NCBI GenBank assembly: GCA_951406725.2
Contig: OX597823.1
Span: forward strand, 70,494,001-70,558,000
DNA: 64,000 nt
Reading direction: 5' to 3'
Source of the DNA: Octopus vulgaris
Taxonomy: Eukaryota
Shown: positions 5,424 through 56,281 of the stretch, piece after piece
How positions within the stretch are numbered: the stretch's first letter is position 1
Layout of the letters: each line of letters begins with the position of its first letter
Notes under the pieces: generated by a model
Databases searched by the model: none
What the model was told of the DNA's origin: nothing
Seen by the model: the letters and a program-made list of their open reading frames with translations, nothing else
Position numbers and translations under genes: made by a program

Positions 5424-5471
5424 GTGTGATGGAATGTGTTTCGACCTGTTTTAAGGTCTCTTCAGGTACAC
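5424..5471 (-). ncRNA. Hammerhead-like motif
   Basis: GTGTAC-CTGAAGA-GACCT.TAAAAC.AGGTC-GAAA-CACATTCCA-TC-ACAC. Core boxes and stem II are intact; stem III is disturbed, possibly by the overlapping 12-bp tandem duplication. Confidence 0.5.
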
Positions 5472-5864: not shown

Positions 5865-6800
5865 GAATGCCAGATGAGATCTCCCTGCATCCCCCGTCGT
5901 TCGAATGAAGGTAGTGCCAGCCGTTGGAGTTGTTCCTCTTATGCAAGCTTAGACAAGCCCGCGCCCATTCGGGTGGGGGGCAAGTGCTGAACCCGTTCCA
6001 GGTGCTGAATGTCTTTCTGGAGATATGGGTTTGAGGTATGGATGTAATATTCAAGGATGGGTCGAACAAGAGTGACGTATACCGGCCTAAAGACGTCCAT
6101 TGAAAGGTTGGCAAAGGATCGGTGAATGAGGAAAAGATTCCTTCTGGTTTTGTTCGCCACCTCGATACCCTGCCGCGGTGGTCTGAAAGTAGTATCGATC
6201 ATTATGCCGAGATCCTTTTCTTCAGTGACCATCTTAAGATGTTGATGTTTGTGGCCATTAGTCAAGGGAGAGTTTGGAGGTGAACCTATTGGCAAATGGC
6301 TGCATTTTGAAGCGTTCAAGGGCAGATCCCATTCTTCCGCCCAATTCCAAGCTCGGTTCAGCGACGATTGGAGTATGTCGTGTTGATTCCTAGGCGAGAC
6401 AAGTTTGACGTCGTCTGCAAATAGGAGAACTCTTCCATCAAGAAAATCTTGCAGGTCGTTGATATAGAGAAGGAAAAGTAGTGGCCCCAGCACCGACCCC
6501 TGGGGAACGCAGCTGCATGCATTCGTCTCCGCGGAGATCTCTCCATTTATCTGCACCCAAAAGGTTCGATAGCTCAAGAAGGAAGAAATCCACGAAGTCA
6601 CCAATGAATGAATCTTGAATGCTCGAAGTTTGCGCTAGAGAAGTCGGTGATCAACGGAGTCAAACGCCTTTGCGAAGTCCAAAAATACCACGCCAATCGA
6701 GTCTTTTTCATCCATGGTCCTTGTAATCCATTCTTCAAGAAGGAGAAGATTTGTTAGGCAAGATCTTCGGGGTAGAAATCCATGCTGCGAGTAGGATATA
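5865..6800 (-). mobile_element. CR1-clade LINE reverse transcriptase fragment
   Basis: FLDFAKAFDSVDH, VPQGSVLGPLLFLLYINDL, LFADDVKL, LVRPILEY and LERVQ, with in-frame stops. Confidence 0.9.
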
Positions 6801-6929
6801 TCTTTGTACCAATACAGATAATTGTATAATACTTTGGTTGGAAATAGCTGTGGGAATGACCTGAACGTTGTGAATAAAGATAAAGTCGAGTACGTTATTT
6901 TCCCCTAATTGGACGGGTAATGATTTGTT

Positions 6930-23802: not shown

Positions 23803-24817
23803 TTATAGACTTTTGTGAAAGTCCCTCGCATGAAATGGTGTTGTTGGTATACCACGGAAAGCTAGACTAAGTGCCCTGAAAGAATAATATATTCCAATGG
23901 AACCTACAACAACGCCGATTATAATGATACTAATATCTAATACTTTTGTGTACCATGGAAGTATTTTGCCTTTAATTCTGATATGAAAGAAACACGGCCA
24001 AACAAAAGAAAGCATAGTACCAGTGAAGCTACCGATCAAACCCATAAGTATTGCGAAATGAGGAATAAATATAGCCATTGCCATTGTAGCTAGGACAAGA
24101 CCAATTCTCAGACATCCTGCCCATATTTTGAGGCGACAGTTCTCGTCAAAACAAGAAGGAAAATAAGTCGAAGGTTTTCCGTTGAAATATGTAGTCTGAA
24201 TCATCTCCACGGCTGCATAGTATGGAAGTGGATAGGAAAGAGTGGATTTTGCTACAAGAATTAAATTGACGACAATCTTTAGGCTCTGAGTTGGTAAATT
24301 ATTTGTGATCACTTCCTGCGTTCCATTTCCCCATGTTAAGAAACAGATATACGAGAACAACACTTTGAAAAATGCTGCTGCTATGTGAGTCCAATGCATC
24401 ATGCAGTGAAACCGGGAACGATCTTCCATGTTTTCTTCTAGTGTTGGTAGAAATATCTGTGAGGTATAGCTGAAAACTACAATACCTATGGAAATGGGGA
24501 ATGTCCAAACATCAACTTTAATCTGGACTGATTTCCACTGCCATTCGGTGGCCCGTGTAAAGCAAAAAATTAAAATAAATGCATTAATTGCCATATGAGC
24601 CATGGTGCACCAAAAACTGAGCCAAGAGACACCACGCAAGGACTTTAAAAAAGCGTAGCTCAGTAGCGGAGTTGTTGCGATCATTATCCAGAATGTGAGA
24701 CTGATAGGCGACTCAGGGAAACTTCCCAAAATCAGTTCCCCGCTGAGTAATACGTACAGAATGCAAGTCATTAGTAATTCTATCAGCTGAGCGACGTTGA
24801 CGATCTTACCACCGAAT
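23803..24817 (-). CDS. SLC32A1: Vesicular inhibitory amino acid (GABA/glycine) transporter, last coding exon
   Basis: Acceptor TTTGTTTCAG| before 24817, completing an Arg codon split by a phase-2 intron. FGGKIVNVAQLIELLMTCILY, GIVVFSYTSQIFLPTLE, LSYPLPYYAA and PHFAILMGLIGSFTG are hallmark VGAT/UNC-47 motifs. Ends at TAA. Confidence 0.95.
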
Positions 24818-25007
24818 CTGAAACAAAAATATTAAAATATAAGGATTTGGTATAAACGAAAAATAATTATTAGAACGTTCAGAAATTGGTTTTTAAAAGC
24901 AAGTTAAATTTGAAGACAAGAATACAATTTCTTTCAGCTGCCTTAGGAATAAAATTAATTTCTTTTCTCTATGCTTAAAACACACACTCACACACATACA
25001 CACACAA

Positions 25008-25059
<52 letters not shown>

Positions 25060-25291
25060 CACACACACACAAAACACACACACACACACGCACACACGCG
25101 CACGCACACACACACACACACACACGCACACACGCACACACGCACACACACACAGAGTTATAGAAGGAGTTGGGGCGGAAAGGCAATCGCTTATACGTTT
25201 CCATGGAGCTTCAAAAATTAGTGATCTGATATAGCTTTAATAGGAATCGTAACCGGCGCAGTACTAACTTAACTGTATTCGCCAACGCTCA

Positions 25292-25332
<41 letters not shown>

Positions 25333-25338
<6 letters not shown>

Positions 25339-26635
25339 AGTGGGCAGAAAAGTTCATCATCTAACTTTGAATGAGTGATGCTAGAGCTGTGAAATCTTGC
25401 ATGCATTAATTTCAAGTTTCCTTAATAATAACCGCATTGTTTCTTTCTAGGTAACTTGAAATCTTACTATTCAAAGAAGACTTCAAAAGTAACTCGTAGC
25501 GACTTCTCTTGAAAATGGACAAAATTTAGCATCGTGGTGTTACGAAGCACCGACAGAAAAATGGTTTAGCCCCCCCCCAGGACATGCATGCTGACAAGGC
25601 TGCTATATTAGGGAATGACACGCTAGCGTTATCAACAAGGCAAAAATGGGCAGCTTAAATTAGGAGGGGAAGGGAGAGTCTTGCAGATAACTCAAGGTCC
25701 GGACGTCCTGCGACTACCACCACCAAGGAAAACATTGATCGTGTTCAGCACATGGTGATGGATGGCAGTCGTTTGACTATAAATCAAATAACCAAAGCTA
25801 TGAGCATATCTCATGAAAATGTTGAGAATATTTTGCCCAATGAACTTGGCATGACGAACGTTTCTGTTCGGTGGATACTACACCTGACATCTGATCAAAA
25901 GCGTATTGGGCTGATACATCACAAGGAAATCTGACATTGTTTGAAGCAGATCCACTGGTTTCGTTGAAAGTTTCCTAACCCAAGATGAGTGTTGAGTTCT
26001 TCACTTTGAGCCAGACAAAGAGACAATCCATTCAGTAGGAACACTCCGCTTCACCGGCTCCAAAGAATGCCAAGGTCGTTTCATTTGCTGGGAAGGTGAT
26101 GAGCTAAGTTTTTATGGATGTAAAAGATATCGTGTTTATTGACTGTCTTCAAGAGGTATACACCATCCACAGAGAGTACTATGCCAACTTGCTGAGGTAG
26201 TTACGAAAGGCTATCAAAACCAAACACCTAGAAAAACTGACGAAAAAGGTTTTGTTTTATCAGGACAATTCTCCAGTACACAAGTCTTTTGTTTCAATGG
26301 CTGCTGTTCGTAACTGGGGCTTTGATCTGGTTGAGAACATTCCCTATTCTTCCGATTTGGCCCCATCTGACTATCATCTGTTTCCCAACAGGAAAAAACA
26401 AAACAAAACACTTGGTTGGGAATCAGCATCGCAGTGATGACATCGTATCAGCTGTTGATGACGTTTTTGACCAAAAAGATGAGAGCTTCTTCACCAACAG
26501 GATCCAAGCACCGCAACATCGATGGAAGAAGTGTGTGGACCACAAGAGGACTATGTTAAAAAAAAATCATACTCATTTGATCACTTTCCATGAAAGTGCC
26601 TGGGTTAGCATATGAATTTTTCGGCCGACCTCGTG
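25333..26635 (+). mobile_element. Near-full-length decayed mariner transposon in a VGAT intron
   Basis: Imperfect TIRs CACGAG.GT.GGC.GAAAA.TTCAT. Broken transposase with TQDEC, AGKVM, QDNSPVH and PYSSDLAPSDYHLFP. TA at the right end. Confidence 0.9.
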
Positions 26636-27200
26636 TATATATGATTAGATATTGAATAGTTTTGGGGAGGAATATATTTTTAAACAGAAGTGTCTTATCG
26701 ATAACTCCAACCATATGTATCTTGCATACCATAATCAATAAATTATGTTAATTGAACCTGGTTATGGGTAGGATTTAACTTAGTTATTTTGTTGACCGTC
26801 TTAACATAAAAATCATGCACTGGTGTATTTAAATTGGACTGCGTCTGCAAAGAAATGGATGTTCCTTGCATAGTTACTTAGATGTGAATAAATGGGTTTG
26901 TACCTTCAGTACACACTACTCCTTGAATAGCATTTTTTAGGAGCAAAGACATAGTTACCCTTTCAAACTGCTTATAATTGTTCGAAATCGCTCAGCTCAT
27001 ATCAAATAATTATCATTGAGTTGAGTTATCATTTATAGTAATTTCGGTAAACTGTTGTGATTTTTAAAAAAAATACACATCAAAGAAGGTGTACTTTGTT
27101 TGTACCAGTCACATTTAAAAAAATCTATTTTCTAATGAATTGCATATTAGCAGTTGACAGCTCAACTGATTCTAAGCCAACTCAGATAGTTTAGAAACGG

Positions 27201-27870
27201 AAATGAAAAATATTGGTTTCAAATTTTGGCACAAGGCCAGCAAGTTCGGAGGAGGGGGTAAGTCGATTACTTCGACTCCAGTCCTCAACTGATACTTAAT
27301 TTGTCAACCCCGAAAAGATGAAAGGCAAAGTCGACCTTGGTGGATTTGAACTCAGAACTGTTGAATACCGCAAAGCATTGTGCCCAGCGTGGCAGCTCGC
27401 CGACTTTATGAAATGAAAAAATATTGGTTACAAATTTTGGCATAAGGCCAGCAATTTCGGAGGAGGGGGTAAGTCGATTACTTCGACTCCAGTCCTCAAC
27501 TGATACTTAATTTGTCAACCCCGAAAGGATGAAAGGCAAAGTCGACCTTGGTGGATTTGAACTCAGAACTGTCGAATACCGCAAAGCATTGTGCCCAGCG
27601 TGGTAGCTCGCCGACTTCATGAAATGAAAAATATTAGTTTCAAATTTTGGCATAAGGCCAGCAATTTTGGGTGAGTGGTTAAGTCAATTACATTGACCTC
27701 AGTGCTCAACTGGTACTTATTTTATCAACCCCGAAAAGGGACGAAAAGTAAAGTCGACGCCGGCGGAATTTGAACTCAGAATACAAGGACGGATAAAATG
27801 CCACGTGGCATTTATCCCAGCGGGAAAACGATTCTGCCAACTCGCCGCCTTAAGGTAATGAAAAATTATT
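27201..27870 (-). mobile_element. Three tandem SINE family C copies (~210-bp period)
   Basis: Units start near 27201, 27411 and 27622; an AATGAAAAA(A)T(T)ATT motif occurs at all four junctions. Confidence 0.85.
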
Positions 27871-27946
27871 AAAAATGTTTTTCAAAGTATTTTTTTTATT
27901 TCAGTTATGGGCAACAACTTTATTGTGCATTAGTTGGTTCAGTTCG

Positions 27947-28308
27947 ACCTTTAACCTTTGCATCTATGGTAATAATACATGCGTCGAGAAAATCTGAGAA
28001 AAGTTTACCAAACAAAACGTATGTGAATTTTGATATGGATCGCTGAACATTGGTCAAAAATTCAAGAATCAATCACTATTTGCATCTCAGAATAAACTGC
28101 CGAAATGAACGAGACACCTATACACCCAGAAACGTTTAAAGCAAATTAAAACTGAAAACTTGAAAGCATGTTGGCGGAAACCCAACTGCAACCTAGGAGA
28201 AAGTTGGTTCAGCGCTCCATATCAAAGTTCACATGTTCTTTGTTCGATAAACTTTTTTCAGAAAGTCTCGATGCATATATTCCCACCATAAATGCAATGG
28301 TTAATGGT
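27947..28308. mobile_element. MITE-like element with ~100-bp imperfect TIRs
   Basis: 27947-28048 pairs with 28207-28308. Confidence 0.7.
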
Positions 28309-28794
28309 ATATGAGACGTAGCCGATCATCTCATATACATTATGTAATGGTCTTAGTATCTATTGCGAAGGGATTTAGATTTTTTTTATAGAATACTCTA
28401 TAAATACTAGAGCTAGCAATGCCAAAGTTCTTTGTAATGTTTGACTACCAGACAAGTAACATAAACAACGACCCTTTATCAGTTGTCGGCTGCCTATCTA
28501 CCCCTCATTTCAAGCATTGAACAATAATATGAGTCTTCGAAGGCAGTTGCTCCCAAAAATACTAAAATAAAATTTTCGGATTTATGGAGAGTCAAAGTTG
28601 GGAACAAAAACAGGACAGTGGAGATATACAAGGAACCGAACGAAAACAAACATGGGGAGTCGATAGATCAGAACGAGGGTAAAATAACGAACGCTGGAGA
28701 AAAAATTTTTTGATAAGAGAAAAGATAGAAGCGCAAGATAGCTAGGACACGTCCAGCCTCTTATTATATTATTTATATTATCATTTGATTATAA

Positions 28795-29270
28795 TATTGC
28801 AATCTGGGGGGTTGGGTGGCCAGATGCTAGGGGTAATGTAGTTGCAGAAATTGTTTGACAGTCATGACTGCGTTCTTCTGCTTGTGTGGCAAGGTGCAGA
28901 GTCCTGTTGCCAGACATAGGGTCTTCCAGCAGCCACCCTCTTGATCCAGAACAGCATTACTTCCTCCAGGCACTTGAAGTAGGCCTCCGTGTTGGGTCTG
29001 AGGCCGTGTGGGCAGATGAATGGAGACAACATCACCATTACTAGTGATAATTTAAAACACCATGATGTTGACTGGATGTTTGATTTTTATCACTCTCGGT
29101 ACATGTCCTCAGATTCTACTGTCCTCAGATTGACACCCAAATACTCTGAAATATTCGTATTGGAGCTTCCGGCGGGAATGCCAAGCAGTACAGCATGTCG
29201 TTTCCAAATTTTTGGCAGAGTGAATTGCGTCATGATACTGTTTATCTCACAGACGGTGCCCAACTGATCC
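28795..29270 (-). mobile_element. Tc1/mariner-superfamily transposase fragment (probably DD37D/DD41D-like)
   Basis: KHPVNIMVF...GRPYVWQQDSAPCHTS...WPPNPPDCN. Confidence 0.75.
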
Positions 29271-29944
29271 TACTATTTATATTTTTATAAGAAACAGTTT
29301 ATAAGATGCCCTAGATTCCTTGATCTGACCCATTAACATTTCCCTGATCTGATCCTTAACATTATTTTTCTTAGTAAAGAAACATTTTTAACTGTGACAC
29401 AGAATGTAAAGTGTTGTACCTGCCCTTATTATTTTATTTTTCATTCTGAATTCATTTACTACAAAGATTTAATCTACGTCTCATTTCACCAAAGTCGCGA
29501 AAATTTATAATCGTGAACATGGGTCGATTTAGTAAATTAAGAGAAATCAATATTTTTAACTGTAAAGATGTGTCTGCAAAAACCTAAAGCTTCAGATTCA
29601 ATTCTTGCAGAATTCAGCTGTACTTTTCCACTTCTTCACCTTTTCAGTTAAAATTACAAGATTTTCATTCTTGTGAGGTTTATAAAATGCAATATATTTA
29701 TTAATTAATTCAATTAACTATGCAAAATTAGGCTTGGTGCTTTATCGAAAGAAATGTTTAACCGTAAGTAACATTTAAGTCAGTACCGAATTATATAAAG
29801 AATAAAAATTATTAGTATAATGATTTGGTTATAGAATATATATATCTGGGAATCATTTAATTTAAAAATACAAGGTTTAAAGATTCTATTAAATTTTGAG
29901 CAAAACAAAACTGATATTTAAGAAATATATTACCAAATACTGAC

Positions 29945-30144
29945 CTTTTTCCCATGGCTTCTTCAGCAATTTCCACGTAGCTGTGTCTGACACGTACTAA
30001 ATAACCATTTGAATCTACTTCATATAGACATTCCACCAATATTTTACCGGTATGACAACAAATGTAGGCCACAACAATCATAGACACGAGAGCCCAGTAA
30101 CCTCCTTGGACAACAGTGTAGGGAAAACTAACTATGAACATTCC
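29945..30144 (-). CDS. SLC32A1: VGAT internal coding exon (200 nt)
   Basis: Acceptor TTTGTAG|GGA ATG; GMFIVSFPYTVVQGGYW...ICCHTGKILVECLYE...SYVEIAEEAMGK; donor AG|GTCAGT, in phase with the 24817 acceptor. Confidence 0.93.
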
Positions 30145-53650: not shown

Positions 53651-55087
53651 ACTGTATTCTCAGGTGAAGATCTCTCGCACAGCAAGTATCCCACTGCACA
53701 GCAGGACGGGCTTCACTGTTACTTAAGTGACAACAATTTGTTATGAACTGTTATTACAGGTTCGCTCCTGACAGCATTGTTATGTGGTAGTAGAAGTCAT
53801 TTGAGACTGTTTTTCTTAGAGGAACTGGAAAAGCTTGAAAGCTAGAAATGCCGAAAAGAGAGAAAAGCAAAGGAGATCAGCTGTGGTAAGCAATAAGAAT
53901 CCTTCAGTTTCAGCTTAGAGGCCTGTACTTCTTAGCTAGTGTTGCAAGTTTTCCTTGGTTACCTTCAACCGTTCAGCCTTCTCAGGTATTTGAAACGTAG
54001 GCAGTTTCTTGCTATTGCTTTATCATAGCAATATTGGGACAACTAGAATATTGATGCCTGTTATTGCATTTTACGCACTTTACTGTTTTAAGTATTAACC
54101 TAATGTATTTATAATATTCTTTCATTTAACCTTATATTTCATTTGTATGTATTTATCATTTTCTGGTGTATTGATTCTTAAGTAATTGTATGCTGTTGTC
54201 TGGTCAAAATCTCTTATCTCATGTTTCTTTACAAATCACTATAAGTTCTGATTAACTTTTCATATCTTCAAGGTTGCCGCAGCATATTTTATTGAAATTC
54301 GAAACTCATTTCAATTTCTCTTGTAAATCCATGTACCATCTGCAGTGGTGTTTTTAGTTGTTTAATATCTGCAGCGTATATATTCACGTTGCCCATATAC
54401 ACAGTATGGGTGACTGTTCTGCCATAAACTTCGTAGGCGAATCCACTCCAATTTGGTTTGTCTCATGTTGTTCTTAGTCATGTGAACTTCTTATCCACCT
54501 CGGGGGAACAGTCTCAATGGGTTTGATACCTGTAACTGTAATATTATATTGCTTTCTAAGGACAGAAGAGATACACTTGTTTGTGAGTGTGAATAACAGA
54601 TTAGAAGGGTCAGCAGGCAGTTTATTCCTTATACCTGCTACTTTCTTCTTCAAGTCTAAATTAATTATTTTGAAATTATTTTCACAATATTTAACAGAGG
54701 TTGTTTAGGAAATTCATTTTGTGGTCGTGAAAAACTGATGGTGACTTCTTCGATAGTTCCCTAGTCACCCCCAGAAAACAAATTTTGGTGGACCGAAGTA
54801 GCTTAGTGACATTTCTTTGGGCTCTTTATGTTCTGAGTTCGAATTCCGCGAGGTCGCCTTTGACTTCCACCCTTTCGGAGGTCAATGAAGTACAGGGTGT
54901 TCGGGCTAAATTGGAAGTTTGCATAAAAGTAAAAGAAAACACAATATCACCTATCACAATTAGCGCAGGAGTGGCTGTATGGCAAGAAACTTGCTTCCCA
55001 ACCACATGGTTCCGGGTTCAGTCCCACTGCGTGGTATCAAAGCCTTTCGAGCGGATTTGGTAGATGAAAACTGAAAGAAGCCCGTCG

Positions 55088-55113
<26 letters not shown>

Positions 55114-55124
<11 letters not shown>

Positions 55125-55539
55125 ATTCGAGACAAAACCACTATTTTGCAAAACAAACAAGGAAAGACTTAATCAATACATAAAAATTTTTAATATAAAG
55201 AAATAAACCGCCACTACAATCGTTTCATGTCTTCAATGACATTCGTCAGGTGGATTTTCGATCTCCTAATCTGTTTTAACTTCATAAATTAAAACAGATT
55301 AGGAGATCGAAAATCCACCTGACGAATGTCATTGAAGACATGAAACGATTGTAGTGGCGGTTTATTTCTTTATATTAAAAATTTTTATGTATTGATTAAG
55401 TCTTTCCTTGTTTGTTTTGCAAAATAGTGGTTTTGTCTCGAATTATATTATATAATATTTTACTATAAAATTGGTTTTAATCCTAAATCTGATTTTTCTC
55501 TGTAAATTTGGATTTATTCCTAATATTTATTATTATTAA

Positions 55540-55545
<6 letters not shown>
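55114..55545 (+). mobile_element. Fold-back HHR element in (TA)n
   Basis: 166-bp arms 55114-55279 and 55289-55454 (no mismatch seen), 9-nt loop, ~90-bp unique 3' extension. Confidence 0.9.
55315..55357 (+). ncRNA. Minimal type I hammerhead ribozyme with intact core (mirror copy at 55211-55253, minus strand)
   Basis: CCAC-CTGACGA-ATGTC.ATTGAA.GACAT-GAAA-C.GATT.G-TA-GTGG; predicted cleavage after GUA at 55353. Confidence 0.85.
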
Positions 55546-55607
<62 letters not shown>

Positions 55608-55613
<6 letters not shown>

Positions 55614-56200
55614 TAGTAATGCAATGGAGGTAAGACAATTTTTTTCAAGTTTGTTGCACTCACGCATTTTTGCTAGTACATACGCGGTGAAGCTATACAT
55701 TAGCGTCGTATTATTACGTTTGCTATTTCCAGTAAATATCGGTACTTCGTTGTGCCATATATTTACATCTTTGTATATTTTTCCCTCACGGGCTATTCTT
55801 TACGGGAAAGCAATACTCTAGTATTGCATTACTAATTTATTGAAACTTCTTCACCGTTCTCGTTCTGTTAGCGTTTCGGCGTTTCAGTCGAGTGTATTGG
55901 CATTAATGTGGTAACATCTGAAATGTTGTCGTGGTATATGTTTGGCTGATGAAGATAGATCAAGTATATGTGTGCAGGCATATCTTGAAAAATCTGAAAC
56001 CGGCGCCGGTCCCACATTATCCTTTTCTAGGTATTTCATCTTTCAGATGTTCTCCCTGGAGGTAAGACAATTTTTTTCAAGTTTGTTGCACTCACGCATT
56101 TTTGCTAGTACATACGCGGTGAAGCTATACATTAGCGTCGTATTATTACGTTCGCTATTTCCAGTAAATATCGGTACTTCGTTGTGCCATATATTTACTT

Positions 56201-56204
<4 letters not shown>
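55608..56204 (+). mobile_element. Retrozyme/pLTR-like element: 432-bp unit with 148-bp terminal direct repeats and an 18-bp inverted 5' tag
   Basis: 55625-55772 matches 56057-56204 (2 mismatches); 55608-55625 is the reverse complement of 55823-55840; (TA)n on both sides. Confidence 0.85.
55938..56017 (+). ncRNA. Type I hammerhead ribozyme with intact core and extended stem II
   Basis: TGG-CTGATGA-AGAT..TCAAG.ATATG/CATAT.CTTGA..ATCT-GAAA-CCGGCGCCGG-TC-CCA; predicted cleavage after GUC at 56011. Confidence 0.85.

Positions 56205-56281
<77 letters not shown>

Follow-up and report, generated by a model that had tools for sequence, protein, structure and literature searches.

Head-to-head, intron-less leader copies of a putative Hydra-clade Penelope-like element within a predicted transporter gene of Octopus vulgaris

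Anatomy of the locus

The window analyzed in this study is a stretch of 64,000 nucleotides from Octopus vulgaris (GenBank assembly GCA_951406725.2, contig OX597823.1, positions 70,494,001 to 70,558,000 of the forward strand), and it contains a hairpin inserted between a left (TA)n run at 55091..55119 and a right one at 55546..55610. Positions 55114-55279 and 55289-55454 are exact reverse complements over 166 bp with 9 nt between them, just as the first-pass annotation of this DNA had described, and a repeat search gave the same inverted repeat as 169 nt at 99%. The 60 nt beyond each arm have no mirror symmetry. The left arm passes straight into its (TA)n run, which merges with the outer end of the arm, while the right arm extends about 85 nt beyond the equivalent of the left one (55455 to ~55540) before its (TA)n run begins. 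Both ends of the insertion are therefore (TA)n, the target microsatellite, and because the target is (TA)n there is no countable target site duplication. No empty target site was seen among the listed contig pieces of four sequencing runs.

Comparison with copies of the parent element, which are described below, gives each part of the hairpin an identity. The left or short arm (55114..55279, minus strand) is a spliced leader that runs from position 10 of the element unit to a short end site at unit 175-179; its exon 1 portion occupies 55263..55279 and, by comparison with the copy at locus L061, meets exon 2 between 55263 and 55262. The right or long arm (55280..55540, plus strand) is the entire spliced leader up to a long end site at unit 254-265. 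Its exon 1 (55280..55305) is joined to exon 2 at 55305|55306, where L061 and five other copies (L153-L157) have a GT donor and an AG acceptor. The 1,095-bp GT-AG intron is precisely absent from both arms. The one-sided tail (55455..55540, plus strand) lies between the two end sites and is element 5' UTR from ahead of the ORF, as seen in L061 and L141. It had been annotated that a 9-nt loop closes the hairpin, and 9 nt do separate the arms, but they are the first 9 nt of element exon 1, neither spacer nor target DNA. This identity of the loop was overlooked in the first-pass annotation, as were the spliced-cDNA nature of the arms and the two different fixed end sites. In sum, the locus is a promoter-less stub in a (TA)n run that consists of two intron-less leader copies placed head to head.

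Each arm carries the same minimal type I hammerhead ribozyme (HHR), with the conserved core, three helices and an NUH cut site all present. One lies on the plus strand of the long arm (55315..55357, predicted cut after 55353), with the anatomy of Hydra-clade hammerheads and a predicted dimer fold, and the other on the minus strand of the short arm (55211..55253), where it is sense in the host pre-mRNA; hammerhead words were found at both of these places, in line with the earlier annotation. An Rfam scan of the window locus returned no hammerhead family at E≤1, and the sub-threshold miRNA matches in that scan were rejected as artefacts of the hairpin.

When 113 minus-strand frames were scanned with Pfam, those at 30144-29860 and 24831-23806 matched Aa_trans. 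These would be two downstream coding exons of the host gene (23806..30144, minus strand), with the hairpin in the intron upstream of 30144. The next upstream exon, which is in frame and has a GT donor, lies 5.3 kb past the window end, which places the hairpin in a predicted 39-kb intron with its antisense arm transcribed first, at distances of about 14 kb and 25 kb from the exons on either side. Both the intronic position and the arm order had been anticipated. The sole structure match of the predicted protein was a proton-coupled amino-acid transporter, and the gene is presumably VGAT-like, a label assigned from a motif. This gene model was drawn from DNA alone.

The parent element and its family

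A genome search with the window arm gave 1,106 first-look candidates, 40 of which were scored, and 70 matches. The exact 43-nt hammerhead core has 298 copies genome-wide and its reversed control none, which excludes a chance origin; a loose form of the core pattern occurred 2,798 times compared with 52 times for its control. Of 120 loci fetched, 103 distinct ones were retained after duplicates and one 37-bp region (L106) were removed, and the set was enlarged by 27 loci picked by the exon joint, to give 130, and by 12 picked by one recurrent junction. One caveat is that the loci were selected for an intact core or a spliced joint and come mostly from contigs C1-C10, so the proportions given here describe this set and not the genome as a whole. 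Among the 130 loci there are 94 head-to-head pairs and 36 single arms, and the fold-back can thus be regarded as a normal product of the family. A special or regulatory character of the ribozyme on both strands was not supported: an exact core on both strands was found in 35 of 130 loci, which makes it the usual family product.

The earlier suggestion that the insertion is recent held up better. Among the 40 scored candidates, 8 arms from other loci match the window arm at 100% identity, and the two arms of a locus are identical in only 7 of the 53 loci whose arms overlap by at least 100 bp. By the length of its perfect arm the window hairpin ranks 7 among the 94 pairs, 13 of which reach at least 140 bp, and its junction sequence occurs once in the 2.8-Gb genome.

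Two same-strand cores 2.1 kb apart led to locus L061, which has exon 1, an intron of 1,095 bp bounded by GT and AG, exon 2 including the hammerhead, a leader of 288 nt and an RT ORF. Fuller copies (L142, L146 and L149, and L061 likewise) are arranged as exon 2, ORF, 3' UTR, promoter region, exon 1, intron and exon 2. Open frames of 821 (L123) and 841 (L136) residues from stop to stop were present among 20 loci fetched with the RT region. The 840-aa ORF of L136 has RIKWK at residue 41, DKT at 128, YRDD at 359, CxCx5C at 691, a C-terminal GIY-YIG (VVY..YIG at 710), CxxC at 797 and CxH at 826, and no CCHH motif as judged by eye. A Pfam scan of the element ORF gave neither an RT nor a GIY-YIG match, and the domains were assigned by these motifs. 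By its motifs and its C-terminal GIY-YIG the parent is assigned to the Hydra clade of Penelope-like elements (PLEs), and finding it bears out the proposal that the hairpin derives from the inverted pLTR of a PLE. A Naiad PLE was ruled out, since Naiad elements have an N-terminal endonuclease (EN) and no canonical HHR, whereas the octopus element carries its EN at the C-terminus and does have a canonical HHR. The family also has a (TA)n insertion preference: TA-rich DNA follows the short end in 86 of 98 cases and the long end in 75 of 79. Taken together, the window locus is a real, young, ordinary and dead processed stub of this putative Hydra-clade element.

Some copies have features of their own. 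The L136 ORF (L136:622-3141) has an Asn-rich stretch between RT and EN, with 42% N over residues 481-600; its length differs between copies, and it resembles inserts described in Adineta Penelope ORFs. Five 5'-truncated copies (L153, L154, L155, L156 and L157) keep the promoter region, exon 1, intron, exon 2 and both end sites, have no ORF in the fetched stretch and are candidate sources of the short spliced RNA; the closest to the window is L154, at 98.7%. In L061, an internal deletion (L061:3375-3870) fuses the ORF to the last 342 bp of the intron plus a second hammerhead, so that L061 is a shortened non-autonomous copy with one frameshift. At L026:760-1229 a spliced hairpin of an older subfamily (~89% identical) directly adjoins a young one, and these neighbours suggest that the same (TA)n target was used repeatedly. 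Between the arms of seven loci (L001, L006, L044, L068, L071, L101 and L187) 100-410 bp of unrelated or microsatellite DNA has been caught, for which template jumps during joining are a possible cause.

Intron loss and the start of the arms

The absence of the intron is common among the stubs. Of 103 loci, 76 have the exon1|exon2 joint (in 103 arms), 17 the acceptor and 1 the donor, and when exon 1 was matched genome-wide, 94 spliced copies and 6 with the donor were counted among the matches listed (100 of 231). In two more subfamilies, which have a different exon 1, the stubs show the same exact joint and the long copies a GT donor; at L208 the donor is 4 nt further downstream. Both of these observations point to a spliceosomal origin of the joint and not to one DNA deletion. 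Since neither arm at the window has the element intron, both would have been copied from spliced RNA.

[quoted passage not shown] They kept the acceptor in 14 of 14 cases, although part of these 14 may be tandem joints and not true 5' introns. When the ORF condition was dropped, the acceptor was present in 35 of 100 copies by hand count, among the matches listed of 1,968 (Fisher p 2e-6). A first test of the spliced-plus-ORF pattern was underpowered, with 0 matches compared with 1, and was redone across subfamilies. Retention of the intron, absent from the window arms, was thus confined to the ORF-linked copies.

The 5' ends of the arms also carry information about their template. Of 188 arms, 117 begin no more than 10 nt from an Inr-like start. 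Twenty-four spliced arms start at the +1 A with no upstream genomic sequence, and in 13 of them the A is preceded by a G where the parent has a C; this G is shared with the opposite arm in 10 cases and is not explained by the opposite arm in the other 3. The extra G is probably a copied cap, a reading that leans on the behaviour of other reverse transcriptases. Three loci (L006, L073 and L174) are spliced yet reach 7-67 nt upstream of the start, and an intron-less source copy next to a promoter is a possible alternative. Transcription, splicing, capping and non-cleavage of the template are all inferred here from genomic DNA.

The hammerhead as a likely passenger

Across 12 subfamily variants 97% of cells are paired, and the stems and core are nearly invariant while the loops vary. 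Covariation in the stems amounted to one pair with a two-sided change, which was not above shuffles (93 and 474 of 500). Helix III is palindromic, and two copies are predicted to co-fold as a double hammerhead at -21.8 kcal/mol; for the monomer, the predicted minimum free energy structure (-8.3) differs from the active fold (-5.6). The whole hairpin, in either transcript, has a predicted fold of about -279 kcal/mol. It had been suggested that the antisense arm could mask the ribozyme, and thermodynamically this stands; however, masking is probably of no consequence, as folding predicts an incorrect structure for a single copy and ribozymes of this class depend on another sense copy. Single minimal PLE hammerheads do not cut in vitro, according to the available text of PMC4209133.

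A start exactly at the ribozyme cut is compatible with only one of the 188 arms (L016). Arm starts were considered as a signal of cleavage, since 5 of them fall near unit 71-75, but this was rejected because equal clusters occur at ~33, 50-54 and 61-63 and most of the starts near unit 71-75 include bases upstream of the cut. Most arms cross the cut site, and their RNA templates would therefore have been uncut. The ribozyme is likely a passenger, one that would need a second sense copy or the protein of the element to cut.

Two end sites and the origin of the stubs

When the two arms of each locus were compared, 93 of 94 pairs consisted of one short-ended and one long-ended arm (73 of 74, and then 20 of 20 newly fetched), a pairing for which a 50% null is rough because 16 of the 29 single arms in the first set are intron-bearing ends of longer copies. 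The split was placed at unit 200; short ends lie nearly all at 175-179, with a few earlier, and long ends nearly all at 254-265. Among single arms, 19 end at the short site and 17 at the long one, and the short site is also used by the 3' ends of long copies (L061, L146). In 50 of 52 loci the two arms agree in their allele at a common indel, where 0.54 would be expected if they were independent, a concordance that could also reflect subfamilies active at different times. In 22 of the 94 pairs the short arm reaches further 5' and the long arm holds the tail, so that each has sequence the other lacks; the long arm reaches further 5' in 39 pairs and neither does in 33. At 5 loci the long arm goes no further than the short site, with its stop at unit 165-202, and has little beyond the tail. 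A variant at unit 104 was dropped as evidence for two templates, since it falls on the minus strand of the assembly in 10 of 12 cases; this T-to-G change, found at 12 loci, is possibly a polishing artefact in repeats.

The reading that we consider likely is that one RNA, capped, spliced and uncleaved, was reverse transcribed from two fixed sites, with the two cut strands of the target as primers. The use of two primers on one RNA is suggested by the short-plus-long pairs, the shared indel allele, the non-nested arms and the use of both sites by single arms. Under this model, a promoter in the pLTR would make a Pol II RNA that is capped and spliced, and the GIY-YIG endonuclease of the element would cut both strands within (TA)n. 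One 3' end would then prime at unit 175-179 and the other at 254-265, and both cDNAs would extend toward the cap, with the downstream cDNA displacing the upstream one or stalling on it. In the last step, microhomology of 0-8 nt would connect the 3' ends of the cDNAs, in many cases following a short snap-back. For the long, intron-bearing copies, the likely template would be read-through RNA initiated upstream of the promoter.

The junctions suggest that snap-back at least takes part in the joining. The commonest junction has 20 copies genome-wide, and among the fetched loci that have it the long arm carries the cap end 19 times, compared with 2 for the short arm; short fold-back pieces are also found at the junctions of L052, L071, L159, L165 and L167. 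It can then be asked if priming from one strand is enough, with a cDNA begun at the long site folding back, copying itself to the short site and joining the other target end. Such a route would account for the bias in those 19 of 21 copies, the short fold-back inserts, the 39 loci with a longer 5' reach of the long arm, and identical arms like those in the window. However, it is unable to make the 22 loci with sequence private to each arm or the inverted arms that are only tail, and the short site is used without a partner by single arms and by long copies. As a general explanation, single priming is unlikely, though snap-back may be the route for some loci, the window locus included. The window's own junction sequence fits either twin priming or the snap-back of one cDNA.

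A published explanation for head-to-head pLTRs has an antisense RNA prime itself, with the resulting hairpin inserted afterwards (Arkhipova 2013). The head-to-head geometry and palindromic junctions reported in the available text of PMC3846280 match those seen here, and long copies do keep the intron. However, the arms share a sense start, where they end with an additional G, and both are precisely intron-less in three subfamilies; an antisense RNA could not be spliced at sense GT-AG sites, which disfavours self-priming for the stubs. To judge from these sequences, the explanation does not fit the spliced copies and is very improbable here. Also very unlikely is a role for the hairpin as a riboregulator of the transporter pre-mRNA, be it as a masked ribozyme, a source of dsRNA or an editing target. 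The hairpin is intronic, has its antisense arm first and would form a 166-bp duplex, but it is young, is one among many equivalent stubs and lies far from both flanking exons, and the monomer ribozyme is predicted to misfold. Passive editing or small-RNA output without function is possible, and this single hairpin probably has no role for the host gene.

Even less probable is that the hairpin is itself mobile, as a fold-back mini-element or a retrozyme copied whole. One junction does recur 20 times genome-wide, but the arms around it come in either order and it appears again in a subfamily that has a different exon 1 of its own, the window junction is unique, there are dozens of different junctions among the 94 loci, and no tandem array of the 266-bp unit was found among the 130 loci. 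It is very unlikely that the hairpin is a fold-back of reads or assembly: in the short contigs of four sequencing runs the flank and family words are covered and no listed piece spans the junction, but the flanks are unmirrored, the two ends are asymmetric and fall at family-wide sites, and the junction anatomy is that of 94 sister loci with many different junctions.

A further, tentative reading concerns the intron retained in the ORF-linked copies. PLEs may not avoid spliced templates at all: capped and spliced RNA initiated at the promoter may often be copied but give only stubs that are twin-primed at two leader sites, with viable long copies coming from read-through RNA. In such RNA the short first exon would not be beside the cap, and the intron would for that reason be kept.

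Comparison with known systems

L1 twin priming and processed pseudogenes offer parallels for individual steps, namely two target-primed cDNAs, microhomology joints, intron loss and a cap-derived G. L1 twin priming inverts the 5' part of the element without duplicating it; in the octopus family both primers are downstream of the same leader, and the leader is duplicated.

The likeness to the Hydra clade covers several features reported for that clade (Craig 2021, PMC8557442, as available in part): RWK and DKT motifs, of which the octopus element has an RWK-like form, a CxCx5C linker, a C-terminal GIY-YIG EN with CxxC and CxH, and insertion in (TA)n. To these can be added the canonical minimal HHR, whose layout is that of the Hydra-clade hammerheads in the part of file S2 of Craig 2021 that was available. 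The supplement of PMC8557442, again in its available part, lists an inverted 5'-truncated copy of the Hydra-clade element Penelope-13_HM with HHRs on both strands, and it places an octopus family, Hydra-1_Obim, in the clade; the HHR sequence found here differs from that of Hydra-1_Obim. The unit here is ~5.5 kb with a 2.5-kb ORF and an Asn-rich insert, whereas the Hydra families reported in the same material are mostly below 3 kb, and unlike those families it has a long pLTR that holds a 1.1-2.4-kb intron. The available text of PMC8557442 has no mention of intron-less stubs for Hydra-clade families that could be found.

The units described in the available part of Arkhipova 2013 (PMC3846280) resemble the stubs in their head-to-head inverted pLTRs, the optional tail on one arm, the Inr-like start, the palindromic junctions and the captured host DNA. 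The tail is longer here (~85 nt compared with 30-40), and the arms are spliced, which the antisense self-priming model in that text does not predict.

The in vitro work on PAc, a Poseidon element of Anolis (Frangieh 2024, PMC11167929, as available in part), found that both target strands are cut and extended, that two internal RT start sites bound a tail and that uncleaved RNA is the main substrate. In PAc these sites fall within the ORF and share no homology with the target; in the octopus family, in contrast, they are in the 5' UTR, at AT-rich patches that could base-pair with a (TA)n target. The available text of the PAc study was found to offer no model that accounts for inverted repeats or for splicing.

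For Penelope of D. virilis, the accessible portions of PMC2377424 and PMC4209133 describe a promoter in the 3' pLTR, a short first exon, a 5'-UTR intron that ends just before HHR helix I and mostly spliced transcripts, all of which have a likeness here. The genomic copies of D. virilis Penelope keep the intron, which those reports explain by selection. In the octopus family, by comparison, intron-less copies are the majority class, yet they account for 0 of 14 ORF-linked copies. Chlamys-3_cRei is a further PLE family that has a 5'-UTR intron.

The metazoan non-LTR retrozymes (bioRxiv 10.64898/2026.07.22.740005, from the part of the preprint that was available) are also short, non-coding and pLTR-derived and have a type I HHR. 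However, they consist of tandem direct repeats, whereas a stub is either one arm or an inverted pair and gives no indication of having been copied onward; a retrozyme-type tandem of the short unit was found at none of the 130 loci.

Earlier work had thus already described inverted pLTRs in which one side has a tail, insertion into (TA)n and minimal HHRs, as well as two RT starts and the priming of both strands in vitro. Relative to the literature that was found, what appears to be new is that the inverted arms are spliced and probably capped in origin while the ORF-linked copies keep the intron. A literature search gave no prior report of spliced or intron-less PLE copies, of twin priming or of cap-derived G in PLEs, with older subscription literature outside its scope, and found nothing on point for octopus PLE hammerheads. 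How PLEs retain introns through an RNA stage and why their ends are found head to head are presented as open questions in the available texts of PMC3846280 and PMC8557442. If true, the proposal that viable long copies come from read-through RNA would explain both with sense RNA alone and would retire the antisense self-priming model. The octopus family provides a countable record for these questions, as one joint tells spliced from unspliced templates and the priming sites are fixed. With these properties and with open ORFs in the same genome, the models can be told apart by their predictions in a single in vitro system, and head-to-head stubs give a testable handle on PLE insertion.

Other features of the window

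Three further features were noted. Between two (TA)n runs at 55612-56210 there is an element of ~600 bp in which a direct repeat of 154 bp recurs at a distance of 432 bp and hammerhead core words occur from 55946 onward at wide spacing; it may be another PLE-related end or a retrozyme-like unit. A second hammerhead-like core, with a 4-bp stem II, lies on the minus strand at 5465, about 500 bp downstream of broken RVT_1 frames at 5942-6904 (minus strand). Directly left of the target (TA)n, a very high-copy short repeat occupies 54950-55090 and resembles a tRNA-derived SINE.
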